Shown: one piece after another, positions 9,181 to 62,048 of the stretch
Position numbering within the stretch: position 1 is the stretch's first letter
How the letters are laid out: every line of letters begins with the position of its first letter
Assembly: GCA_031414595.1 (NCBI GenBank)
Contig: JANNVX010000109.1
Coordinates: 22,791-86,790, forward strand
Direction: 5' to 3'
Source of the DNA: Deinococcales bacterium
Lineage (GTDB): Bacteria; Deinococcota; Deinococci; Deinococcales; JAAFIG01
Length of the DNA: 64,000 bases
Position numbers and translations under genes: made by a program
Notes under the pieces: generated by a model
Told to the model about the DNA's origin: nothing
The model's input: only the letters and a program-made list of their open reading frames with translations
The model's database searches: none

Positions 9181-9573
9181 GTGGATTACACAACAGAGGT
9201 GACAGGTGCGTTGTACATTGGTCTGTTTGCGTTGATTGGGGCGGGAATTGTTTATATCACGCTCGAGATTGCAAAGTTGGCGTTTTTTTATGCAGGGTCG
9301 CGGCGATTCGGCGGCAATAAAGCTAAGGATTCGGTTTACGAATGTGGTATGGAAACCATTGGCGATACCAATGTGCAATTCAATTTGAATTACTACTTGT
9401 TTGCCATGCTTTTTGTGATTTTTGATGTCGAAGCTGCACTGCTCTATCCGTGGGCTGTGGCATTCGATACTCTTGGGGTCGGTGGTTTACTTGCCGTGCT
9501 GTCTTTCTTGGTGATTTTGTTCCTTGGGTTTTTATACGCACTTCGTAAAGGAGCATTAAAATGGGTTTACTAG
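9181..9573 (+). CDS. nuoA: NADH-quinone oxidoreductase subunit A
   Basis: [38 protein letters not shown] start after GGAGG. Confidence 0.95.
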
Positions 9574-10112
9574 GCACGCAAGCTCGTCCGGATAACGTTA
9601 TTCTTGGTTCGCTTGATGATTTAATTAACCTCTCTCGTTCGAGAAGTTTATGGCCCTTAACTTTTGGTATTGCTTGCTGTGCCATCGAAATGATGAACTC
9701 GAGCGCCACCCGTTACGACATGGATCGTTTTGGCGTTTTTTACCGCAATACGCCGCGTCAAGCCGATGTGATGATTGTCTCGGGGACGGTTAATAAAAAA
9801 ATGGGTAAGGTCGTGCGTCAACTTTGGGAGCAAATGTCCGAGCCTAAATGGGTCATCAGCATGGGCGCATGTGCCAACCAAGGTGGACCATTTCGCCAAG
9901 GCTATAGCGTGGTTGAAGGGGTAGACAAAATTATCCCCGTAGATATTTATGTTCCCGGTTGCCCGCCGCGTCCCGAAGCCCTGATGCAAGCCCTGCTTTT
10001 GCTGCGAGACAAAATCGCTGACCCTGCGGCGCGTTATGTGCCGGGGACAATGATGGATGCTGATTTTGACCCACTCGCTGAACCCGGTCATGATGGACGG
10101 GTGTTGTTGTGA
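9561..10112 (+). CDS. nuoB: NADH-quinone oxidoreductase subunit B
   Basis: [37 protein letters not shown]. Confidence 0.97.
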
Positions 10113-11083
10113 GCCAACCCTCATCCGCTCCAATTGCTCCAGCTAAAATCTGGCATATCCCACTGCTCGAGTCCGACAAGATAGAAAATCTGATAGCTGG
10201 CTTAAAAGCTCGAGCCGAAACACTGTTTGACACGATTCAAATTACTGTTGCTCTCGAGGATTACCGCACCCTATGTGAACGCCTCTTCAAAGCTGGTTTT
10301 GATTTTCCGCAAAGCATGAGCGGTACAGATTTTGAATGGGGTTTAGGGGTTGCGTTGCAACTGCAACAACTCGAGTCCAAACGCAAAGTCACGGTGCGGA
10401 CGTACTGCACCTATCAAAATGCCCATGTCCCAACTGTTTCTGACCTTTGGGGAGGCGTAGATTGGCACGAACGCGAAGCCTATGACCTTGTGGGCATTAT
10501 TTTTGATGGTCATGAAGACTCGATAAATGGTCATCCACGCCGAATTCTGCTCGAGGATCATTGGACGATTCACCCACTGCAAAAGCGCTATAACACCCGT
10601 GGCTACTTAATCCATGGCTGGACAGAAAAACCATTCCCAACTCCAGCCCCGTGGGAAGAAGGTTTCCAATCCTTCTCTAGCGCTCCTGTGGCTGTTGCTC
10701 ACGTTGCCCCACCCGCGCCGAAAATTGTTCCTGTCGTTGCCGTAGGGGCGAGGCTTCTTGACCCTAAAGCAGCACCTGACGGGCTTGGGTCGCACGCCTC
10801 GCCCGACCCCGCCGAAGCCCCCGCTCCTAAAGCCGAAGCTGCCCCAGTCGTCTCGAGTGACCCACCAAAGAAAGTCGCTAAAAAATGGGTTCCAAAAGGC
10901 GAAGCCGCGCCAATTGTTACCGAAGCCGCCCCTGAAGCTGCCTCGAGTGAACCCGTGCCTGTTGTCTCGAGTGAACCTGCGCCCGTCGTTTCGAGTCCAG
11001 AAGTTGTTGCCGTCTCGAGTCCAGAAGCCGCCCCAGAAGAAAAACCCCGCAATCCTAAAATTAAGCGTTGGGAACCCAGATAA
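10109..11083 (+). CDS. nuoC: NADH-quinone oxidoreductase subunit C with long Pro/Ala-rich C-terminal tail
   Basis: [27 protein letters not shown]; low-complexity tail ending PKIKRWEPR. Confidence 0.92.
10741..10804 (+). repeat. GTAG-type REP (CGTAGGGGCGAGGCACGCCTCGCCC) inside nuoC, interrupted by mini-element E3
   Basis: Matches the 27705 copy once 10754-10792 is removed. Confidence 0.85.
10754..10792 (+). mobile_element. 39-bp structured mini-element, copy E3 (in frame, adds [13 protein letters not shown])
   Basis: CTTCTT-GACCCT-AAAGCA-GCACC-TGAC-GGGC-TTGGGTC-G; the empty allele is visible in the paralogous nuoI tail (14762-14786). Confidence 0.8.
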
Positions 11084-11095
11084 AGGAGGGATGAT

Positions 11096-12277
11096 ATGAC
11101 CGCAGTCGCAGATAAACCGAATAATGCTCGTAATACGTCCGGTTCTGTCATGAACCCGACGACAGTTGAACGGGTCGCGGGTCGCTCGGACGAGATGCTT
11201 CTCAACCTTGGACCACAACACCCAGCCACCCACGGTGTACTTCGAGTTCTTATGGGTGTGGATGGCGAACGTGTCACCAAGGCAATTCCACACATTGGGT
11301 ACTTGCATCGCAACCATGAAAAACTCGAGGAAGTGCGTACTTATCCGATGTGTATTCCCTATACCGACCGCATGGATTACGTGTCGGGAATGCAGAACGA
11401 ATTGCCATTGTGTTTGGCGGTAGAGGAGATGCTAGGTATCGAAGTCCCAGAACGCGCCAAATATGTGCGAACGATTTTATTTGAACTAAGCCGTATTGCG
11501 AGTCACATGGTCTGGATTGGCACATACATGCTCGACCTTGGGGCAATTACTCCGTTTTTATATGCGTTTCGTGACCGCGAAATGATTCTCGACATCATCG
11601 AAGAAACGGCTGGGGCGCGGTTATTACCAAATTATTTCACCTATGGCGGTGTGCGCCGTGACCATCATCCGCGCATGATGCAGGACATTCTCGAGTTCCT
11701 GACGTGGTTTGAGCGTAAGCTCCCAGAGTACGAAGCCCTGACCATTGATGCACCAGTCTTCCAAGCCCGTACCGTTGGTGTTGGTGTGCTAGACCCGCAA
11801 TTGGCGCTCAATCATGGTGTGACCGGACCAAACCTGCGTGGTAGCGGTATCGGCTGGGATTTACGCCGCGACGACCCATATGATGCCTACCCACATTTGG
11901 ATTTCGAGGTCTGTGTGGAGTACGGCTGCGATGCCTACTCAAGAAGCCGCGCTCGTTTTCGTGAATTCCGCGAGAGCATTAAAATTATTCGTCAAGCTGT
12001 TAATCAGTGTCCAAAAGGCGGCGCGTACTTACCAAAACTGCCGCGTCTTAAACCCGTGGCTGGTATGGAACGTTACCGCGCTGTGGAAATCTCGAGGGGA
12101 CATCTTGGGGTGCATATTGTGGCCGACGGTTCAGAAAAACCGTGGCGTGTTAAGCACCGCAGCCCGAGTTTCTGCACCTTGCAAGCCTTAGCGGACATGG
12201 CTGTGGGTTCTAAATTCTCGGATGCAATCGCTATTCTTGGCAGCATTGACATTGTTCTAGGGGAGATTGACCGATGA
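11096..12277 (+). CDS. nuoD: NADH-quinone oxidoreductase subunit D
   Basis: LNLGPQHPATHGVLR, GYLHR, DRMDY, ELSRIASH, GSIDIVLGEIDR; no NiFe CxxC motifs. Confidence 0.97.
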   Translation: MTAVADKPNNARNTSGSVMNPTTVERVAGRSDEMLLNLGPQHPATHGVLRVLMGVDGERVTKAIPHIGYLHRNHEKLEEVRTYPMCIPYTDRMDYVSGMQNELPLCLAVEEMLGIEVPERAKYVRTILFELSRIASHMVWIGTYMLDLGAITPFLYAFRDREMILDIIEETAGARLLPNYFTYGGVRRDHHPRMMQDILEFLTWFERKLPEYEALTIDAPVFQARTVGVGVLDPQLALNHGVTGPNLRGSGIGWDLRRDDPYDAYPHLDFEVCVEYGCDAYSRSRARFREFRESIKIIRQAVNQCPKGGAYLPKLPRLKPVAGMERYRAVEISRGHLGVHIVADGSEKPWRVKHRSPSFCTLQALADMAVGSKFSDAIAILGSIDIVLGEIDR

Positions 12278-13899
12278 GTATTTATGAAAACAAAGAAGCT
12301 CGGTTGCCGCTCGAGCGTGTCTCTGTGCCTACCGATAAGCATTACAGAATGCGAATGAAGCATCACGGGTTACTGAACGCCAATCCGCGTAAATCGGGTT
12401 TGTTGGCGGCGATTATTGGTTATGCGCTCTTGTTTGGCGCTGCCCACGGTGTGTTAATTCTGGCATTTCAAGTCATTCCAGCACTTTTGACCAACGGCTT
12501 ACCGTTCCCATGGACTGGTTTTGGTCTCGAGAAGAACAGTTTTTGGTTTAACGTCATTTACGGGCTGCTTGCCCCAGTCTTGGCGTTTTTATTTATCGCT
12601 GTGGTGGCATTGATTAACATCCTCATGCTGCGTAAGTACCTCGCTAAAGTTCAGAACCGTTATGGACCTCTGCACAACGGACCCTCGGGCAGTTTACAAA
12701 CGGTTTACGACGCGCTCAAACTGGTTTCTAAAGAAGATTACACCCCCAAAATGGTTGAGGAAACAATTTTCACCCTTGCCCCAGTCCTCGTTTTTGTTTC
12801 TGCCTTTTTACTGATGGCAGTGATACCATTTGCCCCCGGTTGGGTCTTTGCCAATGTCGAAGCTGGCGCAATTTTTATTATTGCGGCGGGTACGCTCGGC
12901 GGGTACGGTGTGCTGCTGGCGGGTTGGAGCATGAACAACAAGTACGGTTTGATGGGTGGCTTACGAGCCGCAGCGCAGCTTGTCAGTTACGAAGTGCCGC
13001 TTTCGATTAGCTTGCTTTCGGTCTGTGTCTACGCGGGCAGCATGAACCTTAGTAAAATTGTCGAAGCCCAACAAAGCCTGTGGTTTGCGATTCCGCTCTT
13101 TATTCCTTTCGTAATTTATTTAATCGCAGGTCTTGCCGAACTTAAAATGACTCCGTTTGACCTCCCAGAAGCCGAATCTGAACTTGTGGCTGGTTTTAAC
13201 ACCGAGTACGGCGGAATGCGTTTCGGATTTTTCTTTGTGGCAGAATTTGCCGAACTTTACCTTCTTCCAGCGTTGATGGCGGTGTTCTTTTTAGGTGGTT
13301 GGAATGCTCCTTCTATTCCAGCACCAACAGGGACTTTTCTTAACACTTGGTCTGGAGGTGCGCCTACCCTAGAACTTGTACTAAAGGCAAATCCAATGGC
13401 GGGTGACTTAAATGCTGATTATATTGTCAATCAAGAAGATTTGACTGCTTTCTCGGCAGCAGAGGTAGATGGCAAAAAGTTACCCAAGTGGCGATTGGAT
13501 ATTACTCGAGATGGTTCAGTTGATTCCAAAGATAGTGAATTTATTTCACGCGAAATTGCCACCAATCCCAAGCCAACCTTATGGCAGCTACTATTTGGAC
13601 CCGGAAGTTTAATTCTCAATAGTATTTATGCTCTGATTTTTCTAGTTAAAGGCGCAGCAGGAGTCTATTTCTACATGTGGATTCGTGCCACACTGCCCCG
13701 TTTCCGTGATGACCAGTTAATGGAACTCTGCTGGAAGGGTTTAATCCCACTTTCTTTAGTTGGATTGTTGCTGGCAGCCGTCTCGAGACTGATTCCAGCC
13801 GTTGGGATTACTATTTCGATATTGGTGGGCGGAACATTCATTGTGATGATTGCACGCGGGGCATTCTTCCCCACCTCGAGTAAGCAGGTGAAAGCATGA
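12274..13899 (+). CDS. nuoH: NADH-quinone oxidoreductase subunit H with N-terminal extension and an internal dockerin/EF-hand-like insertion
   Basis: QNRYGP, DALKLVSKED, SYEVP, PFDLPEAESELVAGFNTEY, WIRATLPRFR; 541 aa versus ~330-360 typical. Confidence 0.93.
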   Translation: MSIYENKEARLPLERVSVPTDKHYRMRMKHHGLLNANPRKSGLLAAIIGYALLFGAAHGVLILAFQVIPALLTNGLPFPWTGFGLEKNSFWFNVIYGLLAPVLAFLFIAVVALINILMLRKYLAKVQNRYGPLHNGPSGSLQTVYDALKLVSKEDYTPKMVEETIFTLAPVLVFVSAFLLMAVIPFAPGWVFANVEAGAIFIIAAGTLGGYGVLLAGWSMNNKYGLMGGLRAAAQLVSYEVPLSISLLSVCVYAGSMNLSKIVEAQQSLWFAIPLFIPFVIYLIAGLAELKMTPFDLPEAESELVAGFNTEYGGMRFGFFFVAEFAELYLLPALMAVFFLGGWNAPSIPAPTGTFLNTWSGGAPTLELVLKANPMAGDLNADYIVNQEDLTAFSAAEVDGKKLPKWRLDITRDGSVDSKDSEFISREIATNPKPTLWQLLFGPGSLILNSIYALIFLVKGAAGVYFYMWIRATLPRFRDDQLMELCWKGLIPLSLVGLLLAAVSRLIPAVGITISILVGGTFIVMIARGAFFPTSSKQVKA

Positions 13900-14951
13900 G
13901 TCTCTTAAAAGATATTTGGAATGCGGTATCTGGTGTTGGTAAGGGCATGGAAAAGGTCTACGATGAACAATTCGATCCGATTTTCACCGAAATGTACCCA
14001 TTTGACATGCCAAAACTGCCGCCAACCAGTGTCCAGAGTTTGGCACTGATTAAAAACGAGGATGGCTCAGACAGGTGCGTGTCTTGCTTAGCCTGTGAAA
14101 AAGTCTGCCCAAGCCAAGTGATTACCATTGAGCGCAAGAAAAACCCTGCTGGTAAAGGCTTTGTTCTCGAGCGTTTCGACATTGATTTGGTCAACTGCAT
14201 GTACTGCGCGGCTTGTGTCGAATCCTGCCCAGCCTCGGCAATTGTCACGATTCAAGACTTTGAATTGTCTACCCCGAATCTGCAAACCCTAAAAGCCGAT
14301 AAGGACTTCCTCGATTTCCAAGGCATTCGCGCTCAGCAGTGGTACAGCCCGAAAATTGGGGTCGAGTACCGCGAAAATGTCACCTCGAGTAATGTCCACG
14401 GAGCAATTGTTAAAGCCCCATTGATTGACCAACCCGGCGGCGCTGCTGAATATGAAAAATTAAAAGCGGCTGGCACAGAAATCCCTGTCAATAATGCCCG
14501 TCGTCCGGCTAACGCCATGTCTGAGCTTTCCATTCTCGAGTACAAACAATTAAAGCATGAGCCAATCAGTGCCACAGCCGCCAAACTCGAGTCAAAACCA
14601 GTTTCAGTCAATATCCCTGTCAACATCCCCGCCCCAGTCCTCGAGACTGTGGCTGTGTTATCTGCATCTGTCGCCTCATCTGCCCCAAAATCCAAGAAAA
14701 TCAAACGTTGGGGAGAACCTGCTTCCGAAGAATCCACCCTACCCGCCGTTGCCCCCGAACCCGTAGGGGCGAGGCATGCCTCGCCCGACCCCGCCGAAGC
14801 CCCCCTGCCGAAAGCCGAAGCTGTTGCCGTTGCCCCAGTCTCGAGTCCAGAACCAGCCGTCTCGAGTGCCGAAGTCCCAGTCTCGAGTGCCGAACCAGCC
14901 GAAGAAAAACCAAAAAATCCCAAAATTAAGCGTTGGGAGCCTAAATCATGA
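13896..14951 (+). CDS. nuoI: NADH-quinone oxidoreductase subunit I with long C-terminal extension
   Basis: CVSCLACEKVCP and CMYCAACVESCP (2x4Fe-4S); tail ending [10 protein letters not shown]. Confidence 0.92.
   Translation: MSLLKDIWNAVSGVGKGMEKVYDEQFDPIFTEMYPFDMPKLPPTSVQSLALIKNEDGSDRCVSCLACEKVCPSQVITIERKKNPAGKGFVLERFDIDLVNCMYCAACVESCPASAIVTIQDFELSTPNLQTLKADKDFLDFQGIRAQQWYSPKIGVEYRENVTSSNVHGAIVKAPLIDQPGGAAEYEKLKAAGTEIPVNNARRPANAMSELSILEYKQLKHEPISATAAKLESKPVSVNIPVNIPAPVLETVAVLSASVASSAPKSKKIKRWGEPASEESTLPAVAPEPVGARHASPDPAEAPLPKAEAVAVAPVSSPEPAVSSAEVPVSSAEPAEEKPKNPKIKRWEPKS
14762..14786 (+). repeat. GTAG-type REP inside nuoI (encodes VGARHASP)
   Basis: CGTAGGGGCGAGGCATGCCTCGCCC palindrome. Confidence 0.85.
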
Positions 14952-15568
14952 CCGAAGTCAATACTGTTTTCTTTTATTTGGTTGCCCTTGGCATTTTATC
15001 CACGGCAATCTACGCGGTGGCGAGTCCTAAGCTACTAAACGCGGCTGTTTCCCTTGCCTTGTCATTTTTTGCCGTTGGTGGTTTGTATTTCATGCTCGGG
15101 AACGGTTTCTTGGGCATGTTGCAAATTTTAATTAACGCTGGTGCAATTCCAATCGTCACGGTTTTTATTATCATGATGACCCAATCGCGGCGTATCCGCT
15201 TGCGTTCTAATTTGAATGTCGCCGCAGCCCTTCTAGCAATTGTGGTCTTGGCAGGTAGCCTCTGGTCATTTTGGAATAGATACCAAGGTTCGGCAGCCAC
15301 CCAAGGTAAGCAGATAACGTCAACGCCAACTTCTGAACTGGGTGTGAAGTTGCTCAGTGCCGATGGTACATTACTCGCCTTTGAACTTGCTTCGGTGCTG
15401 CTGCTTCTAGCCATGGTTGGTGCAATTGTCCTGACCAAGCGTGACGGCGAAACGATTAAAGGTGATGTCGGTGTGTTGTCCGATGTCGCTTTACCTGTGA
15501 CGGGTGGAGAGCTTTCTCGTCCAGCCGCAACCATCGAACGAGCCTCAAAACAGGAGGTGGTTTCGTGA
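14948..15568 (+). CDS. nuoJ: NADH-quinone oxidoreductase subunit J
   Basis: Operon position; QILINAGAI..VFIIM, FELASVLLLLAMVGAIVL. Confidence 0.92.
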   Translation: MTEVNTVFFYLVALGILSTAIYAVASPKLLNAAVSLALSFFAVGGLYFMLGNGFLGMLQILINAGAIPIVTVFIIMMTQSRRIRLRSNLNVAAALLAIVVLAGSLWSFWNRYQGSAATQGKQITSTPTSELGVKLLSADGTLLAFELASVLLLLAMVGAIVLTKRDGETIKGDVGVLSDVALPVTGGELSRPAATIERASKQEVVS

Positions 15569-15921
15569 ATCTCGAGTCAATTCTTGCCCCAATTCGTTCC
15601 TTTGCTAATTCTGGTATTTCAGTCAATCACTTTATTGCCCTTGCGATGCTGCTGTTCTTGGTTGGTTTATATGGTGTTTTAACCCGTCGCAATATCGTGG
15701 CAATTTTAATGAGTGTTGAAATTATGCTCAACGCCGCCATGCTGGTGTTTGTAGCGGCGGCTGCTTACAGCGGTGATGCCACCAAAACGGGTCCACTATT
15801 TGCGCTTTTTATCGTTGCCATTGCTGCCGCCGAGGTTGCTGTGGGTCTCGCCATTTTTATCAATGTCTTTAGAAGTAAGGGTGGCGTAACCACCGAAGAC
15901 TTGATGGAAATGAAGAATTAA
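15565..15921 (+). CDS. nuoK: NADH-quinone oxidoreductase subunit K
   Basis: RRNIVAILMSVEIMLNA, AAAEVAVGLAI. Confidence 0.96.
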   Translation: MNLESILAPIRSFANSGISVNHFIALAMLLFLVGLYGVLTRRNIVAILMSVEIMLNAAMLVFVAAAAYSGDATKTGPLFALFIVAIAAAEVAVGLAIFINVFRSKGGVTTEDLMEMKN

Positions 15922-15932
15922 AGGAGGGGAAA

Positions 15933-18134
15933 ATGTTTATTGATTACGCTTTGTTGATTCCCCTGCTTCCCGCGTTCGGCTGGCTGATCATTTCCTTGTT
16001 CAGCAAATCGCTGGGCGGCAAGGGTAGTGCGTGGTTGGCAACAACCATGATTGGCTTGAGTGCAGTGATTGCCATTGGTCTGTTCGCCGATTCGTTCTCG
16101 AGTGCGCCAGTCTGGAAAGCCGATACGCTGGGTAAAATTTATAAACTCGAGAAGGAAATTAAGGTTCTCGAGAAGGCAGAAAAAGCTGGGAAGCCAGAAA
16201 CCGCCACAATTGAACCGGGTTCTGAAGTCCCTAAAACTGAGGGCGAACACACCGCCAGCCCTGAGCTTTTAGCACTCGAGGAGAAGTTAAGTGAGTACAA
16301 AACCGAAGCCCTCGAGTCTCGAGCCGTTGGCGGTTTTCCGTTTACCAGAGACTGGACTTGGTTAGCCATTAAAGGCGAAGCAGGTTTACCATTTGGTTTA
16401 TATGTAGACCAGTTAGCTGCAATTATGCTTTTAATGGTGACAATTGTTTGTTTTTTAATTCATTTGTTCAGCATTGGCTACATGGCGCACGAAGAACGCT
16501 ATCCGACCTTTTTTAGTTATATCAATTTGTTTGCCGCCGCCATGCTTGCGATGGTGCTGGCGAAGAACTTATTCCATGTCTTGTTGTTCTGGGAAATCAT
16601 GGGCTTAATGTCGTACCTTTTGATTGGCTTTTTCTATAAGAAGAAAAGCGCTCAACAAGCTCAGAAGAAGGCTTTTTTAACCGTGCGTATCGGCGACTTG
16701 GCGTTTATGGCTGGGTTGTTCTGGTTGTACAGTGTCTTTGGGACACTGGATATTCCAACCCTTCTTGCCACATCTCACAGCGACCTCGAGACCAAACTTG
16801 GTGGGGCAGCTTTTGGCATTGGCTTACTGCTCTTTATTGCTGCGGTTGGTAAATCGGCTCAGTTCCCGCTTCATGTCTGGTTGCCAGATGCAATGGAAGG
16901 TCCTACACCAGTAAGCGCCATGATTCACGCCGCGACAATGGTGGCGGCGGGTGTGTACTTGGTGGCTCGAGTTTACCCAATTATGGATGTTGGTGGAGTC
17001 CTACCAATTATTGCATGGCTTGGGGGCTTTACGGCGCTGTTTGCAGCCAGTCTTGCGCCAGCCCAAGCCGATGCCAAGAAGATTATGGCGTTTAGTACGC
17101 TTTCACAATTGGGCTTGATGTTCATGGGCTTAGGTCTGTTCGGGTACGCAGCAGCGCTGTTTCACTTGCTGACTCACGCGTTTTTCAAAGCCCTCTTGTT
17201 CCTTGGTTCGGGTAGCATGATTCATGGTGCAGGTACGCAAGACATCTTTGAAATGGATAATTTATCCAAGTACCAAAAATACACTTGGGCGACGGTTCTG
17301 ATTGGTTCACTTAGCTTAATGGGTTTCCCACTCACGGCTGGTTTCTGGTCTAAAGACGAAATTCTGCATGTGGCTCAGAGTGCAAACCCAGCCCTGTACA
17401 TCGTTGGTTGTGCAGTGGCGATTTTGACCGCGTTTTACACTACACGGATGTTTATTATTGCCTTCCACAAGCCCAAACAAGTTTCCCCGTGGGGCTTAGC
17501 CGCTTGGAACAACGAGGGCGAACCAAGCCTAAACATGACCCAAGCCGAAGTTGAAGAACAAAAAAAGCACGAACATGGTCATGGTCATAGCGATCATCCG
17601 CACGAATCTGGTTCTGAAATGCTCATCCCATTGGTTAGCCTTGCAACCCTTGCGACGGTCATGGGTTTTGTTGGCAGTCCATTCGCTAATTTCTGGCTGC
17701 AACGCTTTGTCTATCACGGTGATGTGCCGCATGTCGCGCCGCTCGAGTCACTTTGGGCTGGGTTTATCATCAGTGCGATTTTGGTGGTGATTGGCGCAGG
17801 AGCATCTTATGCCCTGTACTGGAATTCTGATGTGACCAAGGCTCGAGCGCCCGAATGGTTGACTCGAGTGTTGCAACGCCGTTATTACATTGATGATTAC
17901 TTCTACGCGGGTCCTGCTAAAATTTCTAACGATATTCAATGGCTGTTTGCTTGGTTTGATAAGAATGTCGTGGACAAAATCGTTGACTTCGTTGGTGGGC
18001 TGGTGGTGGTGCTTGGCGATGCCTCGAGACGGATTCAAACAGGGGCTTTAGGTTGGTACGCAGGTCTGACTGTAATTGGTGGCTTGGCACTGATTCTTGC
18101 CTTTGCTGTTGCCTTTGCTGGAGGTGGCAAATGA
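15933..18134 (+). CDS. nuoL: NADH-quinone oxidoreductase subunit L
   Basis: FWEIMGLMSYLLIGF, GKSAQFPLHVWLPDAMEGPTPVSAMIHAATMV, HLLTHAFFKALLFL. Confidence 0.97.
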   Translation: MFIDYALLIPLLPAFGWLIISLFSKSLGGKGSAWLATTMIGLSAVIAIGLFADSFSSAPVWKADTLGKIYKLEKEIKVLEKAEKAGKPETATIEPGSEVPKTEGEHTASPELLALEEKLSEYKTEALESRAVGGFPFTRDWTWLAIKGEAGLPFGLYVDQLAAIMLLMVTIVCFLIHLFSIGYMAHEERYPTFFSYINLFAAAMLAMVLAKNLFHVLLFWEIMGLMSYLLIGFFYKKKSAQQAQKKAFLTVRIGDLAFMAGLFWLYSVFGTLDIPTLLATSHSDLETKLGGAAFGIGLLLFIAAVGKSAQFPLHVWLPDAMEGPTPVSAMIHAATMVAAGVYLVARVYPIMDVGGVLPIIAWLGGFTALFAASLAPAQADAKKIMAFSTLSQLGLMFMGLGLFGYAAALFHLLTHAFFKALLFLGSGSMIHGAGTQDIFEMDNLSKYQKYTWATVLIGSLSLMGFPLTAGFWSKDEILHVAQSANPALYIVGCAVAILTAFYTTRMFIIAFHKPKQVSPWGLAAWNNEGEPSLNMTQAEVEEQKKHEHGHGHSDHPHESGSEMLIPLVSLATLATVMGFVGSPFANFWLQRFVYHGDVPHVAPLESLWAGFIISAILVVIGAGASYALYWNSDVTKARAPEWLTRVLQRRYYIDDYFYAGPAKISNDIQWLFAWFDKNVVDKIVDFVGGLVVVLGDASRRIQTGALGWYAGLTVIGGLALILAFAVAFAGGGK

Positions 18135-19666
18135 TTACGGCTTTAATTCTGATTCCGATTCTGGCGGCGATTCTGGCGGCGGTCTCGAGTACCGCCATTG
18201 CAAAACGTGTGGCAGTGGCTGCAAGTTTAATCACCACAATTGTCAGTGCGATCATGTACTTTTCGTATAACACAAGCGGCGGACAATTGGCGTTTGTTGA
18301 AAAAGTGCCTTGGATTCCTCAAGCTGGGATTGGCTACTTTGTTGGTTTAGACGGACTTTCCTTGCCATTTGTGTTTTTAACCGCACTGCTGACCTTGGTT
18401 TCGGTGCTGGCTTCTTGGGACGAAGAAAAAAAGAGTTTCTATGCGCTTTTTCTGGTCATGCAAGCTGGTGTGACAGGTGTTTTTGCCTCGCTTGACTTAA
18501 TACTGTACTTCTTGTTCTGGGAAGTGGTCTTAATCCCGATGTTCTTTATTATTCTGGTTTGGGGTTACGAGAATCGCCGTTATGCGGGTATTAAATTTGT
18601 GATTTATAGCCTGACTGGTTCGGTGTTGATGCTGATTTCAATGCTGGCATTAGCCTTTGGTGTAGCCAGTGCCACAGGTAAACCACTTTCCTTTGACTAT
18701 GAAGTGCTGCTTGCGAACCTCGAGACGATTAAATCCCTGCCGGGGATTGCCCTGATTTTCTGGGGCTTTATGATTGCCTTTTTGATTAAACTTCCCGCTT
18801 TTCCATTCCATACATGGTTGCCTCATGCCCACACTGAAGCCCCAACGGGCGGTTCGATTATGCTGGCGGGAGTGCTACTCAAAATGGGTGGGTACGGCAT
18901 TTTGCGTTTTAACCTTGGTTTAATGCCAGAGCAAATGCAGCAATTCCAGACGATTTTGGCAATTCTAGCCACGATTGGCGTAATTTACGGGGCGTATTGT
19001 GCAATGGCACAAAAAGACTTAAAGCGGATGGTCGCGTACTCGAGTGTCAATCACATGGGTTATGTGCTGCTTGGGATTGTGAGCATGACCGCTATGGGCA
19101 TTCACGGTGCGGTTTACCAGATGGTGGCGCACGGGATTATCACTGGCTTAATGTTTATGATGGTTGGCTTTTTAAGTCACCGCACCCACACAAGGGAAAT
19201 CGCCAAGATGACGGGTATGTACAATGCCATGCCAGTCTTGGGTGCAATTATGTGGATGGCATTTTTAGGCGGGCTTGGCTTACCGGGCATGGCTGGGTTT
19301 ATTGGCGAGTACACAGCGTTGTCTGGGGCGATTCAAAATCCTGCCACGGCAATTTATGGGTACATCAGTTTAATCGGCATTATTGTCACGGCTGGATTTA
19401 TTCTCTATGCCGTGCAGCGTGTGTTGCTTGGGCGTAACCCTGCGGCAACCGACGACCATCACGGTCACGATGTACCCTCGAGCCACGGCGAACAAAAAGG
19501 GCATCACGACCTCTCACCGCTTGAGATTGCGGCGGCTGCGCCTTTGGTGATTCTTGGGGTGGTACTTGGTTTGTACCCTGCGCTGCTCACGCCTTGGATT
19601 GATGGCAGCACACAATTACTGCTCGAGACCGCCAAACGAGTCATGGCACTGGGAGGTGGACAATGA
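18131..19666 (+). CDS. nuoM: NADH-quinone oxidoreductase subunit M
   Basis: FWEVVLIPMF, PFHTWLPHAHTEAP, LLKMGGYG, AYSSVNHMG; ATG overlaps the nuoL stop. Confidence 0.96.
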   Translation: MITALILIPILAAILAAVSSTAIAKRVAVAASLITTIVSAIMYFSYNTSGGQLAFVEKVPWIPQAGIGYFVGLDGLSLPFVFLTALLTLVSVLASWDEEKKSFYALFLVMQAGVTGVFASLDLILYFLFWEVVLIPMFFIILVWGYENRRYAGIKFVIYSLTGSVLMLISMLALAFGVASATGKPLSFDYEVLLANLETIKSLPGIALIFWGFMIAFLIKLPAFPFHTWLPHAHTEAPTGGSIMLAGVLLKMGGYGILRFNLGLMPEQMQQFQTILAILATIGVIYGAYCAMAQKDLKRMVAYSSVNHMGYVLLGIVSMTAMGIHGAVYQMVAHGIITGLMFMMVGFLSHRTHTREIAKMTGMYNAMPVLGAIMWMAFLGGLGLPGMAGFIGEYTALSGAIQNPATAIYGYISLIGIIVTAGFILYAVQRVLLGRNPAATDDHHGHDVPSSHGEQKGHHDLSPLEIAAAAPLVILGVVLGLYPALLTPWIDGSTQLLLETAKRVMALGGGQ

Positions 19667-21129
19667 TTTTTGTGGCATTGGTGTTCTTGATGATTTCGGC
19701 AATGGCAATGTTTATTGCAGCAACTTTTAAGGGCGCAGAGGAAAAACATGCGGGGCAGATTTTTGGTGGTATCAGCTTAGTGGTGTACGGCATCACGGCG
19801 TTGTTGGCAGCGATGGCTTGGAATGACACAACCGTACATTACGGGGTGATTAAGTCTGGTGGCTTGGCGACCCTTGGCACAATTATCATGTGCGGTATCG
19901 GGGCTTTAACGGTCGGTGGTGTAATGGCTAACCCCGAAAAGTACAAGGCTGGTGTCGGTGAATTCTTTGGTTTTATTGCCTTTGTGGTTTTTGGTGGGGC
20001 AATTATGGTCAGCACCAATCATCTACTCGTGCTGCTGCTTGGTATTGAACTCTCGAGTTATGCGACTTATATTCTAGTGGGATATTACCGCGATGACCGC
20101 TTCAGCAATGAGGCTGCCAGCAAATACTTTTTATTAGGTGCAGTCGCCAGTGGCTTTCTGATTTTTGGCATGAGCCTTGTCTATGCCAGTGTGGTTTTTG
20201 TCAATGGCTCACTCAGTTATGCTGACATTGGCAATACTTTGGCGGGTCTGGTCGGGCAGACGGTTGGTATTCCAGCCCTGATTTACCCCGGTATCGCCAT
20301 GCTGCTGGTTGGCTTTGGCTTCAAACTCGCGCTTGCACCGTTTCACTCTTGGACTCCAGATGCCTACCAAGGCGCTCCGACGATGGTGGCGGCAATTCTT
20401 AGCGTTGGACCTAAAGCGGCGGTTGTGATTGCGCTCTCGAGCTTACTGACCACAGCTTTTCCGGTGCCAGAACTCTCGAGTGCTTGGAAGAACGCCATTG
20501 CTGTCCTAGCGATTTTATCCATGACCATCGGCAACTTAATGGCATTACAACAAACCAACCTCAAGCGTCTGCTTGGCTTCTCGAGTATCGCCCAATTGGG
20601 TTATGTGGTGATTGGTGTGGCAGTTGGCAGTTTAGACGGCACAAGTGCGGTTATTTTGTATATGGTTGGTTATGCTGTCACCAATATCGGTGCATTTATG
20701 ATTATTGCTACGCTGCGCGATTCTGGGGTCGGCGAAAACATCGAAGACATTGCGGGCTTGGTTAAACGCAATTCATTTGCTGCCGTGATGCTGGCTGGTT
20801 TCTTTATGGGTTTAGCTGGTGTACCTGTGCTGGCTGGTTTCCTCGGCAAGTTACTGCTTTTTAAGAGCGCTGTGGATGTTGGGATGGTGGCGCTTGCGGT
20901 GATTGCTGTCCTGAATGTTGTGCCAAGTTACTACTATTACTTTAGGGTGATTATCAGTGCAATTTTTAGTGAACCCAAAGACTCGAGAACCTTTGAACTG
21001 AATCCAACTGCCACGACGACGCTTGCGATAGCACTTGGGGCGGTGGTGTTGCTGGGCGTTTTTCCAACGCCATTACTAAACATCATCAACGAAGCCGTTA
21101 AAGTCCTACCACTTTTTGCCGCTCGCTAA
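19663..21129 (+). CDS. nuoN: NADH-quinone oxidoreductase subunit N
   Basis: EAASKYFLLG, FKLALAPFHSWTPDAYQGAP, KRLLGFSSIAQLGY. Confidence 0.96.
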   Translation: MIFVALVFLMISAMAMFIAATFKGAEEKHAGQIFGGISLVVYGITALLAAMAWNDTTVHYGVIKSGGLATLGTIIMCGIGALTVGGVMANPEKYKAGVGEFFGFIAFVVFGGAIMVSTNHLLVLLLGIELSSYATYILVGYYRDDRFSNEAASKYFLLGAVASGFLIFGMSLVYASVVFVNGSLSYADIGNTLAGLVGQTVGIPALIYPGIAMLLVGFGFKLALAPFHSWTPDAYQGAPTMVAAILSVGPKAAVVIALSSLLTTAFPVPELSSAWKNAIAVLAILSMTIGNLMALQQTNLKRLLGFSSIAQLGYVVIGVAVGSLDGTSAVILYMVGYAVTNIGAFMIIATLRDSGVGENIEDIAGLVKRNSFAAVMLAGFFMGLAGVPVLAGFLGKLLLFKSAVDVGMVALAVIAVLNVVPSYYYYFRVIISAIFSEPKDSRTFELNPTATTTLAIALGAVVLLGVFPTPLLNIINEAVKVLPLFAAR

Positions 21130-21984: not shown

Positions 21985-22368
21985 ATGTACAAAGGTCGAG
22001 AAGGACAATGGGCATTTTTTCTGCATCGCTTGTCTGGCGTTGCTATTTTGTTGTATCTGATTCTGCACACCGTTTCAATCGGTTCAACCATGTTAGGGGA
22101 AGGCGTTTACAACACGGTTCACAAGATTTATGAATGGATGCCTTTTCGTCTTGGGCTAATCGGTGTGGCTGGGGCAGTGGCATACCATGCGTTTAATGGT
22201 TTACGAATTGTCTTAATGGATTTTACTGAATGGGGCGTGAAATACCAACGCCAACTTTGGTACGGTTCGTTGGTACTGGCAGGGTTGTTTATGCTTCTCA
22301 CCCTTTATGCCAACCTGCCGCGTTTATTTTCGGAAGTCTTTACCTACACCACCATTTGGGGGCAATGA
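21985..22368 (+). CDS. sdhC: Succinate dehydrogenase cytochrome b556 subunit
   Basis: MYKGREGQWAFFLHRLSG, YHAFNGLRIVLMDF. Confidence 0.94.
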   Translation: MYKGREGQWAFFLHRLSGVAILLYLILHTVSIGSTMLGEGVYNTVHKIYEWMPFRLGLIGVAGAVAYHAFNGLRIVLMDFTEWGVKYQRQLWYGSLVLAGLFMLLTLYANLPRLFSEVFTYTTIWGQ

Positions 22369-22370
22369 TT

Positions 22371-22778
22371 ATGGCAATTAAAGCAAGAAGATTTAAGGAC
22401 GCAAAAGCCCAAGCCAAATCGAATCCCGAACTGGTCTGGTGGGTGTTTATGCGCCTTTCCGGGTCGGCTCTGGTGATACTGACTTTGTTTCATTTGTTCA
22501 AAAACCATATTTCGGTAGACGAAGCCAGTTGGGATTATGAAAAAATCGCCTCGAGTTATGCCGATGGTTGGAACAAGTTGTACTTAGGGGCAATGCTCAG
22601 TTTAGGCTTACTACACGGCGGCAACGGTATTCGTTATGTGATTGAAGACCTAACTGCCAAAAACCCTATGGCTCGAGTCTGGGCAAAGGGTATTGCTTTT
22701 GCTTTAATCGGTGCGGTACTGGTCTTTGGCTTACTGGCATTGATTGTAAAAATACCCATTCCGGGCGTGGATAATTAA
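22371..22778 (+). CDS. sdhD: Succinate dehydrogenase hydrophobic anchor subunit
   Basis: WWVFMRLSG, LHGGNGIRYVIED; lies between sdhC and sdhA (alternative ATG at 22365). Confidence 0.9.
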   Translation: MAIKARRFKDAKAQAKSNPELVWWVFMRLSGSALVILTLFHLFKNHISVDEASWDYEKIASSYADGWNKLYLGAMLSLGLLHGGNGIRYVIEDLTAKNPMARVWAKGIAFALIGAVLVFGLLALIVKIPIPGVDN

Positions 22779-22878
22779 CTGGCTATTAGCGACTAGCTGC
22801 TAGTTATTAGCTAAAACCAAAAGCTAAAGCTCGAGACCAAGAGCTAGAAGCTAAAAGCTAGTCGCTAGAAGCTAAAAA
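22779..22878. repeat. Heptamer-repeat (AGCTAnn) imperfect hairpin between sdhD and sdhA
   Basis: TAGCGACTAGCT ... AGCTAGTCGCTA arms with AAAGCTA/GAAGCTA units. Confidence 0.75.
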
Positions 22879-22886
22879 GGAGTTTC

Positions 22887-24641
22887 ATGGAAGTTCATAC
22901 ACACGACGTAATTGTTGTTGGCGCAGGTGGAAGCGGCTTAATGGCGGCGCTGTACGCCAAGAAAAACGCAACTGGCAGCGTTGCCGTTATCTCTAAACTT
23001 TACCCGACCCGTTCACACACGGGCGCAGCCCAAGGTGGTGTCGGGGCAGCCCTAGGCAACGTAGACGAGGACAGTTGGGAATGGCATATGTTTGATACGG
23101 TTAAGGGTGGCGATTACTTGACCGACCAAGACGCAGCCGAAATTTTTGCCAAAGATGTGATTGAAGCGGTGCTTGAACTCGAGCATATGGGGCTGCCTTT
23201 TAGCCGTTTGCCGAATGGGAAAATTGCCCAGCGCCGCTTTGGTGGGCATACCAGAGAATTTGGTAAAGCCCCAGTTCATCGCGCTTGTTATGCGGCTGAC
23301 CGCACAGGGCATATGATTTTACAAACCTTGTATCAGCAAAGCATCAAAGAAAGAGTCACTTTTTTTAATGAATTTGTGGTGCTGGATTTAATTCTCGAGG
23401 ATGATTCAAGTGGCAAAGTCTGCAAAGGCGTGGTTGCTTATGAACTGGCTACGGGTAAACTCCATACCTTTCATGCCAAAAGCGTGGTCTTGGCTTCAGG
23501 TGGCAACGGACGGATGTTCAAAGTCACCAGCAACGCCCATGCGCTGACTGGCGACCTGACCAGCATTGCCTACCGCCGAGGCATCCCACTCGAGGACATG
23601 GAATTTTATCAGTTTCACCCGACTGGGTTGTATAAACTTGGGGTACTCCTGACCGAAGGTGTGCGCGGTGAAGGTGGCATCCTTCGTAACTCGAGCGGTG
23701 AGCGCTTTATGGAACGCTACGCTCCAACCATCAAAGACCTTGCGCCCCGCGATATTGTTTCGCGCAGTATGTATTTTGAAATTCGTGAGGGACGCGGTTG
23801 TGGACCGAACAAAGATTACATTCACTTGGATGTGACCCATATAGACCCGAAAATTCTCGAGGAACGCCTACCTGACATCATGGATTTTAGCCGTACCTAT
23901 TTAAGAGTTGAACCAACCAAAGAACCAGTACCGATTCAACCGACTGCCCATTACACGATGGGTGGAATTCCGACCACTTTGGATGGCGAAGTGATTTTCG
24001 GCACAACCAATGACACCAAGGTACGCGGTTTATACGCGGCTGGCGAAGTGGCTTGTGTTAGCTTGCACGGCGCGAATCGCCTTGGTACAAACAGCTTAGG
24101 CGATTTAATTGTCTTCGGCAGACGGGCTGGTGTAGCTGCCGCCAAGTACGCCAACACCGCCGCCCTCGAGCCATTACCCAGCAATGCTGCTGGACGAGCC
24201 TCTGATTTGGTCAACAACACCAAAAATTCCAATGGTACAGAAAGTGTGGCTAAAATCCGCCTCGAGATGCAGCAAACTATGCAGGACAACGCCAGTGTCT
24301 TTCGCACCGAAGAAACCCTAAGTACCCAGGTCGAAATTTTACGCGGCTTAAACCAGCGCTACAAAAACATTGGAGTTTCTGACAAGGGTGAGCGCTTCAA
24401 CACCGAACTTTTAGAAGCCATCGAACTTGGCTTTTTGCTCGATAACGCCGAAGCCCTTGTTCACAGCGCCCTAAACCGCCGTGAATCGCGTGGCGCACAT
24501 GCGCGAGAAGACCACACCGAACGCAACGATACGACTTTCTTAAAACACACGATGTGCTATCAGCTCGAGCCGGGCAGAACCGAAATCAAATGGAAAGATG
24601 TGGTACTGGGTAAATACGAACCAAAACCGAGAACGTATTAA
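22887..24641 (+). CDS. sdhA: Succinate dehydrogenase flavoprotein subunit
   Basis: [47 protein letters not shown]. Confidence 0.98.
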
Positions 24642-24705
24642 GCTATGAGCCTTGAGCTATGAGCTAAAATTCTCAAAGCTCAAAGCCCATAGCTCATAGC
24701 CTCTC
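24641..24705. repeat. Heptamer-repeat (AGCTATG / CATAGCT) hairpin between sdhA and sdhB
   Basis: AGCTATG AGCCTTG AGCTATG AGCT ... AGCTCAA AGCCCAT AGCTCAT AGC. Confidence 0.8.
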
Positions 24706-24719
24706 AAAAAGGAGTCTCC

Positions 24720-25421
24720 ATGCAAGCAATTTTTAAGATTCATCGTTATAACCCTGAAAAAGACAAAAAACCGTACTGGGCAGAATATACCCTCGAGGTT
24801 GACCCCAAAGACCGAATTCTCGATATTCTTAATCAAATTAAATGGGAACTTGATGGTAGCTTATCGTTTCGGCGTTCTTGCGCCCATGGGATTTGTGGTT
24901 CGGATGCGATGCTGATTAACGGCAAAAATCGTTTGGCTTGTAAGGTATTGATGATGGATTTAGGTGGGAATACGGTTACGGTAGAACCGATTCGCGGACT
25001 GAGTGTCGAAAAGGACTTAATTGTTGACATGACTCCGTTCTTTGAGAGTTACGAAGCGGTGATGCCGTTTTTTATCAACGACCAACAGATGCCAGAACGC
25101 GAACATATTCAAAGCCATGAAGACCGCGAGATTTATGATGCCAGTACCAAGTGTATTCTTTGTGCTTGCTGCACCACTTCCTGCCCGATTTTCTGGGTCA
25201 ATGGAACGTATTTGGGACCAGCGGCAATCGTTCAAGCTCACCGTTTTATCTTTGACTCGAGAGACACAGGTGGGGCAGAGCGCTTGGCTAAACTCAATCA
25301 AAACACAGGGGTTTGGCGTTGCCGCACCGCCTACAACTGCACCGAAGCCTGCCCGAGGGATATTCCGATTACTGATGTGATTGGGCAAGTCAAACGCGCT
25401 ATTCTGTACAGCAGCATCTGA
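24720..25421 (+). CDS. sdhB: Succinate dehydrogenase iron-sulfur subunit
   Basis: SCAHGICGSD, CILCACCTTSCP, CRTAYNCTEACP. Confidence 0.98.
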   Translation: MQAIFKIHRYNPEKDKKPYWAEYTLEVDPKDRILDILNQIKWELDGSLSFRRSCAHGICGSDAMLINGKNRLACKVLMMDLGGNTVTVEPIRGLSVEKDLIVDMTPFFESYEAVMPFFINDQQMPEREHIQSHEDREIYDASTKCILCACCTTSCPIFWVNGTYLGPAAIVQAHRFIFDSRDTGGAERLAKLNQNTGVWRCRTAYNCTEACPRDIPITDVIGQVKRAILYSSI

Positions 25422-35411: not shown

Positions 35412-35682
35412 AGTCTACACGAGTTTGCACGGCTCGAGATACGCAAAATGGCGAGTAAGTTTTATCTAACCTTATACAAAATTGCTTGGTTTAGTATTTT
35501 GAATCGCATTTCAATAGGTTCGCATGTATAAATTTAATCGTAGCCATTTTGACTGTGCCTACCAAGTCTCAAGGATTAGGATTCTAAGGGTCCAGAGGGT
35601 ATGACTTTAGTCGATTAAACCTTAAAAAAAGGTTTGGTCTACTCGGTTCTCACCTGTGGTCTCTTATTGTCGAAGGAGACAT

Positions 35683-36534
35683 ATGAAGAAAATAATTCCA
35701 TTCGTCGTCGGCACTTTATTTATCGGTGGTGCGGCACTTGCTGCCCCTTTGGAACTCAGTTCAGGTGAATTCGGTTTGGTGTATCAATTGCTTTCTATCG
35801 CTATTGCATCCATGGGTGCATCATTCATTTTCTTTGTCTTGGGTAAGCAAAACCTAGGTATAAAATACCAACCTGCCATGCTGGTTTCGGCATTGGTCGT
35901 GGCGGTGGCTTGTTACCATTACGTGCGTATTTTTGATTCTTGGAAAGAAGCCTACGTGTTTGCTGATGGGGTTTACAAAGCCACTGGTATTCCTTTCAAC
36001 GATGCTTATCGTTACGCCGATTGGGTCTTGACCGTACCACTCTTATTGGTCGAAGCTGTGGCAGTATTAGCACTGGCAAGTAGTGTTGCCTCGGGCATGA
36101 TTTGGCGATTGGTTGTGGCTGCCTTAGCAATGATTGCACTGGGTTATCCAGGCGAAATCTCGAGTGATACTGGCACACGTTTACTCTGGGGTACACTCAG
36201 CACCATTCCATTTTTGTACATTATCTATACCTTGTTTGTCGAGCTTGGCAAGTCCTTAGCAACCCAACCACCTCGAGTTCAACTTCTGATGGGCAACTTG
36301 CGGTTATTGCTGTTCGGGTCATGGGGTTTCTATCCAATCGCCTATTTGCTTCCCTTGATATTTGGTAGCTTATCTTCTAGCGGAATTGTAGCGCTGCAAG
36401 TAGGGTATAGCCTTGCCGACATTATTGCCAAAGCAGGTTTCGGTACACTAATTTACTTTATCGCCCTCGAGAAAACCAAAGTAGACAACGAGAATAAGGC
36501 AAAAGTAGGCAATCTCGCAACGGCAGGAGACTAA
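35683..36534 (+). CDS. Microbial rhodopsin, xanthorhodopsin/Gloeobacter-type DTE proton pump
   Basis: YRYADWVLTVPLLLVE (D-T-E), LGYPGE, WGFYPIAY, DIIAK retinal lysine; ATG at 35683 after AAGGAG. Confidence 0.93.
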   Translation: MKKIIPFVVGTLFIGGAALAAPLELSSGEFGLVYQLLSIAIASMGASFIFFVLGKQNLGIKYQPAMLVSALVVAVACYHYVRIFDSWKEAYVFADGVYKATGIPFNDAYRYADWVLTVPLLLVEAVAVLALASSVASGMIWRLVVAALAMIALGYPGEISSDTGTRLLWGTLSTIPFLYIIYTLFVELGKSLATQPPRVQLLMGNLRLLLFGSWGFYPIAYLLPLIFGSLSSSGIVALQVGYSLADIIAKAGFGTLIYFIALEKTKVDNENKAKVGNLATAGD

Positions 36535-41400: not shown

Positions 41401-41739
41401 ATGAAACCCCATTTTTTTAGCACCCAAGCGCATATTCTGATTTGCACCAATGAACGCTGCCTTAAAGACGGCTCGGGATTGCTGTTCCAAGCGGTTTGGA
41501 AAGGTCTCGAGACCGAAAAATTAGCCTATTACAAAACTGGTGGAAATCTGCGCTTAACCGAATCTGGTTGTCTTGGGGCGTGTCAGTTTGGTCCAACTGT
41601 GGCGTGTTACTTTAAGACCAAGACTGGTTTTCAGCAAGCATGGTATCAGCGCATGACCTACCCAAGCACAATGCAGTTAGCCAAAGCGCTTCATGCCGGT
41701 CTCGAGTTGCCATCTGAAGGTCGTTTTGACACCGATTAA
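41401..41739 (+). CDS. Thioredoxin-like [2Fe-2S] ferredoxin
   Basis: HILICTNERC, SGCLGACQFGP, WY. Confidence 0.85.
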   Translation: MKPHFFSTQAHILICTNERCLKDGSGLLFQAVWKGLETEKLAYYKTGGNLRLTESGCLGACQFGPTVACYFKTKTGFQQAWYQRMTYPSTMQLAKALHAGLELPSEGRFDTD

Positions 41740-42218
41740 GGTGTCACCAAATCCGCAAACATATCTTCAGGCAAAGGATGCCCGAGGACTCGAGCCAATG
41801 CCAATAACTGCCCTTTGTGGTGAAATTCATGGGTGATTGGGTGCAAAATCAGCCAATGCTGCGAAACCATCATGGAATTGCCTTCTGGTAGGGTTAATTC
41901 TAGTGGTGCGTCCAAGTTCCGAAACGCTTCAAGGGCTTGAAGCACCAAAGTATCTATCCCCACAAAAGCGGTTCGCATGGCGGGCGCATTCGGTAAAAGC
42001 TCGAAGTTTTTGGGTGGTGACTCGAGTTTTAACCCCATGCTCCCAACCCAAAATAAGTAGCACCCAGCCACATGCGCTTGGATATTACGAATACTGCCGT
42101 AAGCAAAGTCTGGGTGTTCTTGGAGGTACACCTCATTTGGTAGTGTCTCGAGGTAATCAAATAGTTCATCTCGAGAGCGTTTAACCCAGTTGTACATCAG
42201 TGGTAGAGAATTATCCAT
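41736..42218 (-). CDS. DinB family protein
   Basis: GSIRNIQAHVA, HPITHEFHHKGQ. Confidence 0.88.
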   Translation of the reverse strand: MDNSLPLMYNWVKRSRDELFDYLETLPNEVYLQEHPDFAYGSIRNIQAHVAGCYLFWVGSMGLKLESPPKNFELLPNAPAMRTAFVGIDTLVLQALEAFRNLDAPLELTLPEGNSMMVSQHWLILHPITHEFHHKGQLLALARVLGHPLPEDMFADLVTP

Positions 42219-42315
42219 GACTCGAGTCTGCTTGAAATTAGCGGCTTTGTCAATCTTGGAACAGAGGGTTTTGTTGGCGCATTGATAACTCGACTTCATC
42301 GGCTATAATCAACAC

Positions 42316-43073: not shown

Positions 43074-43105
43074 TTTAGAGTGGCTCGAGAATTAGGGTTT
43101 AGCAT

Positions 43106-62029: not shown

Positions 62030-62048
62030 ACTCGAGAGCCGAACCTTG

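Follow-up and report, generated by a model that had tools for sequence, protein, structure and literature searches.

Why does the NuoH subunit of a respiratory complex I carry about a hundred extra residues between two of its transmembrane (TM) helices, and do these residues belong to the enzyme proper? The question is raised by a 64,000-nucleotide (nt) stretch of DNA, here called the window, which encodes the NuoH of an 11-gene complex I operon without nuoE, nuoF and nuoG from an uncultured member of the Deinococcales. Few membrane proteins are as conserved as the core subunits of complex I, whose known accessory parts are mainly extra subunits and not folded domains within an outer loop of a core subunit. 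A first-pass annotation of the window had proposed a dockerin or EF-hand-like module at this position, perhaps tethering the complex to a cohesin-like partner. As judged from sequence, the loop appears to hold a real but rare dockerin-type module, which probably binds Ca2+, is predicted to lie on the outer face of NuoH, is carried on an exchanged cassette and seems dispensable for the enzyme.

The insert between TM6 and TM7 of NuoH

The host protein matches the Pfam family NADHdh (PF00146) with E=8.4e-104 and 347.5 bits (cut-off 27), the match being split into two stretches, and NCBIfam NF004741 with 313.2 bits (cut-off 305). It also aligns with NuoH of Escherichia coli (PDB chain 7nyh_H, E=1.1e-71) and of Thermus thermophilus (4he8_H, E 2e-53). 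In the 7nyh_H alignment, query residues 96-350 pair with chain residues 13-267 and query residues 456-503 with 271-318. Only 3 residues separate TM6 from TM7 in E. coli NuoH, and there are about 102 more here between FLGGW and the next TM helix, which bears out the extra residues reported in the first-pass annotation; by hydropathy, residues 344-438 form a 95-residue non-hydrophobic stretch. Compared with its nearest dockerin-less relatives, the loop is 52-54 residues longer. The helix that follows it, previously called penultimate, is in fact the third from last, because hydropathy shows TM7 and TM8 to be followed by a ninth, C-terminal helix. With the solved NuoH/ND1/Nqo8 chains (7nyh_H, 4he8_H) the protein shares by sequence the full core fold, the quinone-site loop PFDLPEAESELV, Lys459 and the RATLPRFRDDQ motif; unlike them, it has about 83 additional N-terminal residues with a TM segment, about 100 additional residues between TM6 and TM7, and an operon that lacks nuoEFG.

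In all solved complex I structures the TM5-6 loop of ND1/NuoH lines the quinone cavity beneath the cytoplasmic arm. With the corresponding loop of the window protein (residues 294-305) at the cytoplasmic quinone site, TM6 runs outward and the TM6-TM7 loop comes to lie on the outer face, as had been claimed before. This placement agrees with the 7nyh_H alignment and also leans on the account of E. coli NuoH Lys274 in a passage of PMC8357420. The loop would thus face a periplasm-like space and adjoin the outer end of TM7 and the conserved Lys459 (13648-13650), the counterpart of Lys274 in the 7nyh_H alignment, which is invariant in a 12-row alignment of NuoH sequences (alignment A1).

Within the loop the 12-residue pattern DxNxDxxxNxxD occurs twice, both times with a predicted helix behind it, which is the tandem-segment arrangement of type I dockerins (Table 1). 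The first reading had placed two repeats at 13402-13557; this span is essentially right, and the motifs DLNADYIVNQED and DITRDGSVDSKD are both present. The only Pfam family other than NADHdh that matched NuoH was Dockerin_1 (PF00404), at model positions 1-56 of 57, a match better than chance would give. Inserts of this kind were found in the window protein and, among NuoH homologues (proteins with P-numbers, many of them cluster representatives), in P0001, P0162 and P0164, and Dockerin_1 was the sole non-NuoH family for all four, near its full model length. A search restricted to residues 345-450 returned one relative, P0001, with 67% identity across the insert. When a profile of the four inserts (alignment A2) was run against the PDB sequences at E<=10, it matched 24 sequences, the best 13 of which had E-values from 8.8e-6 to 3.5e-3 and were aligned across both Ca loops. 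Five of these 13 carry dockerin in the molecule name; the other eight we take, from the matched chain positions, to be cellulosomal dockerins or dockerin-bearing ends of enzymes. The earlier suggestion of a type I dockerin-like insert is thus upheld by both the Dockerin_1 profile and the matches to PDB dockerins. Conservation among the four inserts is concentrated in the predicted Ca loops, where 9 of 24 columns are invariant; outside them the figure is 2 of 22 ungapped columns (Fisher test, one-sided, p=0.026). Of the ten canonical Ca-ligand positions, seven are invariant and the remaining three hold N, D or T only; in loop 2, positions 3 and 9 hold nothing but T, N or D. For residues 345-440, the Protein Atlas gave as best match a Dockerin/EF-hand cluster at 0.80, which is under the level at which the tool regards a match as more than a lead.

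The resemblance to type I cellulosomal dockerins (PF00404; 4fl4_A, 6kg9_A, 3ul4_B, 1ohz_B, 2ccl_B) extends to the two tandem loop-helix segments, their length and their spacing, and the ligands D1, N/D3, D5 and D12 are kept in the NuoH module. The differences concern the setting: the NuoH module is found not at the C-terminus of a secreted enzyme but in a loop of a respiratory subunit that spans the inner membrane several times, its host is an uncultured Deinococcales bacterium instead of a cellulolytic Firmicute, and it has no known cohesin. An assignment to the EF-hand families (PF13202, PF00036 and related) was rejected, as none of them gave a match to the window insert at E<=1; the sole EF-hand match among the inserts was EF-hand_5 in the P0164 piece (E=0.19).

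Several observations weigh against the dockerin assignment. The window protein reaches a Dockerin_1 score of 19.4 bits at full length, and its excised piece one of 22.7 bits (E=1.2e-4); both lie just below the gathering cut-off of 22.9 bits or further under it, and NCBIfam gave no match for the excised piece. As for the relatives, P0001 exceeds the cut-off with 25.4 bits, while the P0164 and P0162 pieces score 22.2 and 14.8 bits. Dockerins are usually terminal on secreted proteins, not inside polytopic membrane proteins, and the module described here is internal, between TM6 and TM7. In addition, the AlphaFold2 models of whole NuoH on alignment A1 (predicted local distance difference test, pLDDT, 48.8) and of the insert alone on the 4-row A2 (pLDDT 40.8) are too poor for structural confirmation. 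Both place helices after the two loops at low confidence (H387-399 and H418-430 in the whole-NuoH model, H45-57 and H76-88 in the insert model). Foldseek searches of the insert model against the PDB gave no match at E<=0.001 and seven at E<=10 (best 4.9), with no dockerin among them; with a model this poor, the result is uninformative either way. Because both models are of this quality, the fold is read here from the sequence profiles. On the strength of these profiles and of the retained ligand positions, we consider it very likely that NuoH bears a dockerin-type, Ca-binding module on its outer face.

The mosaic cassette and its distribution

Is the module a fixed part of this NuoH? The window was compared with its nearest genomic relatives (L001 to L018, loci from metagenome-assembled genomes of uncultured Deinococcales; 63 related loci were used in all). 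DNA identity to L001 and L002 is about 92% up to position 13305 and again from 13639-13643, and in between, where the alignment has a gap of some 150 nt, it is only about 46-60%. With blastn, the identical two break points were found against L003, L005, L006 and L012, which makes six relatives. The cassette delimited in this way ends, on its 3' side, two to three residues short of Lys459. Because the roughly 100 nt flanking the module on either side are also divergent (about 50% identity), the cassette represents the replacement of one allele by another and not a simple insertion or deletion. The divergent flanks still encode a recognisable NuoH loop (…GG…LEL..KAN… and …W…F.PG…). In view of their divergence, a simple deletion in the sisters was rejected; so was a transposon-like insertion, only two direct repeats of 11-12 nt and one inverted repeat of 10 nt being present around the cassette.

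The composition of the cassette is also foreign. Its GC content at third codon positions (GC3) is 0.283; the remainder of nuoH has about 0.52, and the dockerin-less cassettes of L001-L003 have 0.55-0.60. Over 1305 windows of 113 codons from 63 open reading frames (ORFs) of the window, GC3 had a mean of 0.473 (standard deviation 0.062), and only 1.2% of these windows were as low as the cassette; the low ones outside the cassette all lie in two ORFs in low-GC parts of the window. The source of the module was sought with its 66-residue core among longer proteins, and none of 28 word-sharing candidates matched at E<=10, in a search weak enough to miss P0001 as well.

The paired motif was found in 3 of 269 other NuoH homologues (P0001, P0162 and P0164), and carriers make up 4 of 78 clade sequences (the window and 77 cluster representatives). 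These counts are lower bounds, since clustering at 90% identity masks presence or absence of the dockerin, and further carriers indeed occur among the cluster members (P0271, P0273 and P0274). The window NuoH itself (P0270) had been clustered under a dockerin-less fragment, P0156, as representative. The presence of the module in four protein clusters from different sources indicates that it is real and not an assembly artefact. Each of the four dockerin-bearing proteins has a sister without the module, with identities outside the loop of 98% (window and P0152), 96% (P0001 and P0153), 98% (P0164 and P0170) and 93% (P0162 and P0168). To place the carriers, a quick IQ-TREE phylogeny was computed without the loop columns (44 rows, comprising 39 clade and 5 outgroup sequences, and 430 columns; five clade fragments shorter than 430 residues were omitted). 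The module occurs in both major subclades of this tree, and its four rows require four changes, as compared to a mean of 3.9 for shuffled labels, all 500 of 500 shufflings being as low. Backbone and cassette also tell different histories: P0162 and P0164 have 89% backbone and 39% cassette identity, P0162 and the window 74% and 58%, and cassette identity among dockerin-bearing proteins ranges from 39 to 68%. The first-pass annotation had named absence or lack of conservation in close relatives as grounds for refutation, and here the outcome is split: a sister with 98% identity beyond the loop has no insert, yet three further protein clusters do have it and retain its Ca-ligand positions. The module thus sits on an exchanged, compositionally foreign cassette and is an accessory feature, not a fixed part of this complex I. 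Because the mosaic cassette is foreign and near-identical sisters lack the module, we are highly confident that it has been exchanged horizontally as an accessory. The conserved coding sequences on either side are likely recombination arms, and the cassette would spread among nuoH alleles by homologous recombination via those encoding LGGW and KGAAGVYFYMWIRATLPRFRDDQ.

A cassette of this kind could have several explanations that do not involve docking. One is that a dockerin-coding fragment is a tolerated passenger without a function of its own in a permissive loop. Among 152 sequences (the window, P0001 and 150 representatives), 111 allowed the spacing between the LGGW-type motif and RxxLPRxRxD to be measured, the other 41 lacking one of the regular-expression anchors. 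It was 25-52 residues in 73 of the 111 and 62-146 residues, with correct anchors, in 19, the window and P0001 among them; the remaining 19 values were mostly mis-anchored and were not used. The extra residues in the longer loops are mostly hydrophobic, like TM segments, and NuoH of another lineage, P0066, has a soluble Baseplate_J-like piece there (21.3 bits, cut-off 21.1). Apart from those of the window and P0001, these inserts share the insertion site and lack the dockerin motif pair. Because other lineages carry inserts there, the TM6-TM7 loop is a generally permissive site, and this, together with the sporadic and dispensable character of the module, is what a passenger would predict. However, the Ca-ligand positions are retained in cassettes that are only 39-68% identical, the module is present in both major subclades, and an insert without function would be expected to decay or be deleted instead of being spread by recombination. 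We therefore regard a mere passenger as improbable.

Alternatively, the loop may be under diversifying selection as an inner-membrane entry receptor for a phage or a contact-dependent toxin, the Ca-stabilised knob being an escape allele and its dockerin ancestry incidental. The loop is the sharpest mosaic point in nuoH, several unrelated loop types occur within the clade, the cassette GC3 is foreign, and 17 of 58 pairs with a backbone identity of at least 90% have less than 50% cassette identity. Toxins of contact-dependent inhibition systems need specific, species-variable inner-membrane proteins for entry, according to passages of PMC9291907 and PMC9487645. Against this, nothing ties NuoH to the entry of a toxin or phage, 15 of the 17 discordant pairs involve a dockerin row and merely reflect presence or absence of the module, and the preservation of Ca ligands across deep cassette divergence points to selection for the fold and not just for bulk. 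Receptor escape is accordingly a quite improbable account of the cassette.

A possible partner for the module

If the module is functional, what could it do? Once NuoH is in the membrane, the module would bind two Ca2+ ions and fold up as a compact outer-face knob. Since sister lineages evidently have a working enzyme without it, neither quinone reduction nor proton pumping would involve the module. A regulatory role has to be considered, in which an EF-hand-like switch responds to external Ca2+ by altering TM7 and Lys459 and, with them, enzyme activity. The two EF-hand-like loops and the net charge of the insert (-4) would suit such a sensor. The EF-hand searches described above speak against it, as do the sisters without the module, and dockerin loops bind Ca2+ structurally and with high affinity. 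A Ca2+ sensor is therefore highly improbable.

The module would most likely serve as an optional, Ca-dependent attachment point for a periplasmic or envelope protein, be it a classical cohesin or otherwise. A docking role of this kind would follow from the family resemblance. Peer et al. are said to have described non-cellulosomal dockerin-like modules in 2009. The dockerin passages of PMC9012536 present dockerins and cohesins as widespread beyond cellulose degraders, where their function is unclear; periplasmic binding proteins are one example of their hosts. The examples given there from anaerobic methanotrophic archaea are like the NuoH module in that there is no sign of cellulosomes, the modules are periplasmic or extracytoplasmic and the partner is unknown; their hosts are soluble binding, S-layer or scaffoldin-like proteins, as opposed to a respiratory complex, and the same passages make no mention of a dockerin in a respiratory complex. 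Likewise, a literature search, conducted partly on titles and the beginnings of abstracts, brought up no paper that joins dockerin and NuoH or describes such a fusion, in agreement with the earlier statement that no complex I of this architecture had been described.

In its classical form, the attachment would be a cohesin-dockerin tether, the module plugging into the cohesin of a periplasmic or envelope scaffold and thereby fixing complex I. This is favoured by the profile similarity to cohesin-binding type I dockerins, by the conserved Ca-ligand positions and by the occurrence of non-cellulosomal cohesin-dockerin pairs in diverse bacteria and archaea, periplasmic binding proteins included (dockerin passages of PMC9012536). 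It did not find support in the partner search: the window has 63 non-overlapping ORFs with a length of 110 amino acids (aa) or more, and in a Pfam scan of them all, with the eight unannotated ones rescanned at E<=1, none matched Cohesin and there was no second Dockerin_1. A dockerin-core hidden Markov model, run on six-frame translations of the window and the 63 related loci (1.07 Mb; a cohesin profile was not run on these loci), had the window NuoH as its sole match, so that none of the related loci carries the module or a second one like it. Positions 10-11 of each loop, which we take to be the cohesin-specificity positions of cellulosomal dockerins, differ in all four inserts (QE/DA/NK/SG in loop 1 and SK/NA/DQ/PS in loop 2), and the near-identical sisters do without the module. 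A classical cohesin tether is consequently unlikely, and the cohesin-like partner suggested in the first-pass annotation finds no support among the ORFs of the window.

Most of these points bear also on the wider idea of an attachment point. Any function of the module must be dispensable, because only 4 of 78 representatives carry it, and for many dockerins outside cellulosomes neither a partner nor a function is known, as the dockerin passages of PMC9012536 state. That the module binds a partner protein is for these reasons put forward tentatively. Taking all parts together, the explanation that we favour on balance, with moderate confidence, is an exchanged, dockerin-type, Ca-binding module in the outer loop of NuoH that may act as an optional attachment point.

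Operon context, other variable segments and implications

The features discussed are collected in Table 1. The gene nuoH directly follows nuoD, nuoE/F/G being absent from between the two, and it overlaps both nuoD and nuoI by 4 nt; the relative L012 has an identical order of 11 nuo genes. The N-terminal extension of about 90 aa with an extra TM segment that had been noted earlier is real, with the qualification that about 83 residues are extra in the 7nyh_H alignment, where query residue 96 pairs with E. coli residue 13. Residues 1-40 are rich in lysine and arginine (nine in total), and the extension is conserved throughout the Deinococcales clade in alignment A1. P0001 and P0271, which share a cluster and are otherwise 100% identical, are told apart by a gap of 14 residues in this additional TM segment.

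Table 1. Positions in the window of the nuo operon, nuoH and the segments of NuoH discussed in the text.
Feature	Position	Strand	Basis or remark
nuoA-B-C-D-H-I-J-K-L-M-N operon	9181..21129	+	Pfam match per subunit
nuoH, 541 aa	12274..13899	+	ORF, Pfam, NCBIfam and 7nyh_H alignment
N-terminal extension, residues 1-88	12274..12537	+	not in E. coli or Thermus NuoH
TM0, extra hydrophobic segment, residues 41-74	12394-12495	+	hydropathy
TM6, residues 317-343, FFLGGW at its end (W343)	13222..13302	+	hydropathy and 7nyh_H alignment
Mosaic cassette, 340 nt, whole TM6-TM7 loop and start of TM7	13303..13642	+	DNA identity breaks and GC3
Dockerin type I-like module, residues 376-428, ~53 residues	13399..13557	+	Dockerin_1 and profile matches
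Ca-binding loop 1 (predicted), DLNADYIVNQED, residues 378-389	13405..13440	+	positions 1, 3, 5 and 12 invariant in 4 of 4 inserts
Ca-binding loop 2 (predicted), DITRDGSVDSKD, residues 409-420	13498..13533	+	positions 1, 5, 6, 8 and 12 invariant
TM7, residues 439-468, with Lys459	13588..13677	+	hydropathy and 7nyh_H alignment

Other subunits of the operon have variable segments as well. NuoC (10109-11083) and NuoI (13896-14951) bear long C-terminal tails rich in P, A, E and S on the cytoplasmic-arm side of the enzyme, the middles of which are hypervariable, with blastn breaks at about 10670-11035 and 14374-14920. The extreme C-terminus of both is a conserved PKIKRWEP(K/R)(S/N/G), and NuoI has an additional internal KKIKRWGE; nine related loci (L003, L004, L005, L006, L012, L013, L014, L015 and L018) have the KIKRWEP motif in their NuoC and NuoI frames as well. 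This end motif has the look of a short docking sequence borne by a flexible tether of the NuoEFG-less enzyme. In NuoL (15933-18134), about 100 charged N-terminal aa are inserted ahead of Proton_antipo_N, at a blastn break against the relatives (about 15917-16476), and there is a His-rich insert that contains HEHGHGHSDHPHE. The contigs of the two closest genomic relatives, L001 (3061 nt) and L002 (2944 nt), are short and run from the interior of nuoD to the variable NuoI tail; such ends fit with strain heterogeneity breaking assemblies at variable segments.

Elsewhere in the window, two stretches have a low GC content, 42001-44000 (0.418) and 62001-64000 (0.379), and are probably acquired islands. 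The former holds an XisH/XisI pair and an unannotated ORF at 43109-43831 (GC3 about 0.27-0.32), the latter an ORF with a PIN domain and a small Ras/Arf-like GTPase at 63167-63865 (GC3 about 0.20-0.29). An ORF of 112 aa at 41401-41736, 20 kb from the operon, partially matches the NuoE-type thioredoxin-like [2Fe-2S] ferredoxin family (PF01257, 27.8 bits, model positions 65-124 of 145). Beyond the nuo operon and a divergently oriented cyclophilin gene lies a succinate dehydrogenase/fumarate reductase gene set (21985-25418) that encodes a flavoprotein, an Fe-S subunit and, for the membrane part, two Sdh_cyt subunits, and at 35656-36531 there is a bacteriorhodopsin-like gene (PF01036, E=1.1e-36).

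In its most far-reaching form, docking would mean that a plug-and-socket of the cohesin-dockerin type outside the cytoplasmic membrane ties this complex I, which lacks NuoEFG, to a partner in the periplasm or envelope and that, with the KIKRWEP tail motifs, the enzyme is a two-sided tethering hub. We consider this improbable; were it true, the plug would be on an exchanged cassette, so that close strains would differ in whether their respiratory chain is docked. A dockerin in NuoH would extend assembly of the cohesin-dockerin type from extracellular enzyme complexes to a respiratory enzyme, and the predicted Ca-dependent module of 53 residues may be a handle for envelope contacts of an enzyme that lacks NuoEFG. 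The cassette shows that a core bioenergetic gene can hold a strain-variable, recombining segment, and even if the module should be partnerless, it would still illustrate cleanly how a domain can enter a permissive loop and be exchanged between alleles.

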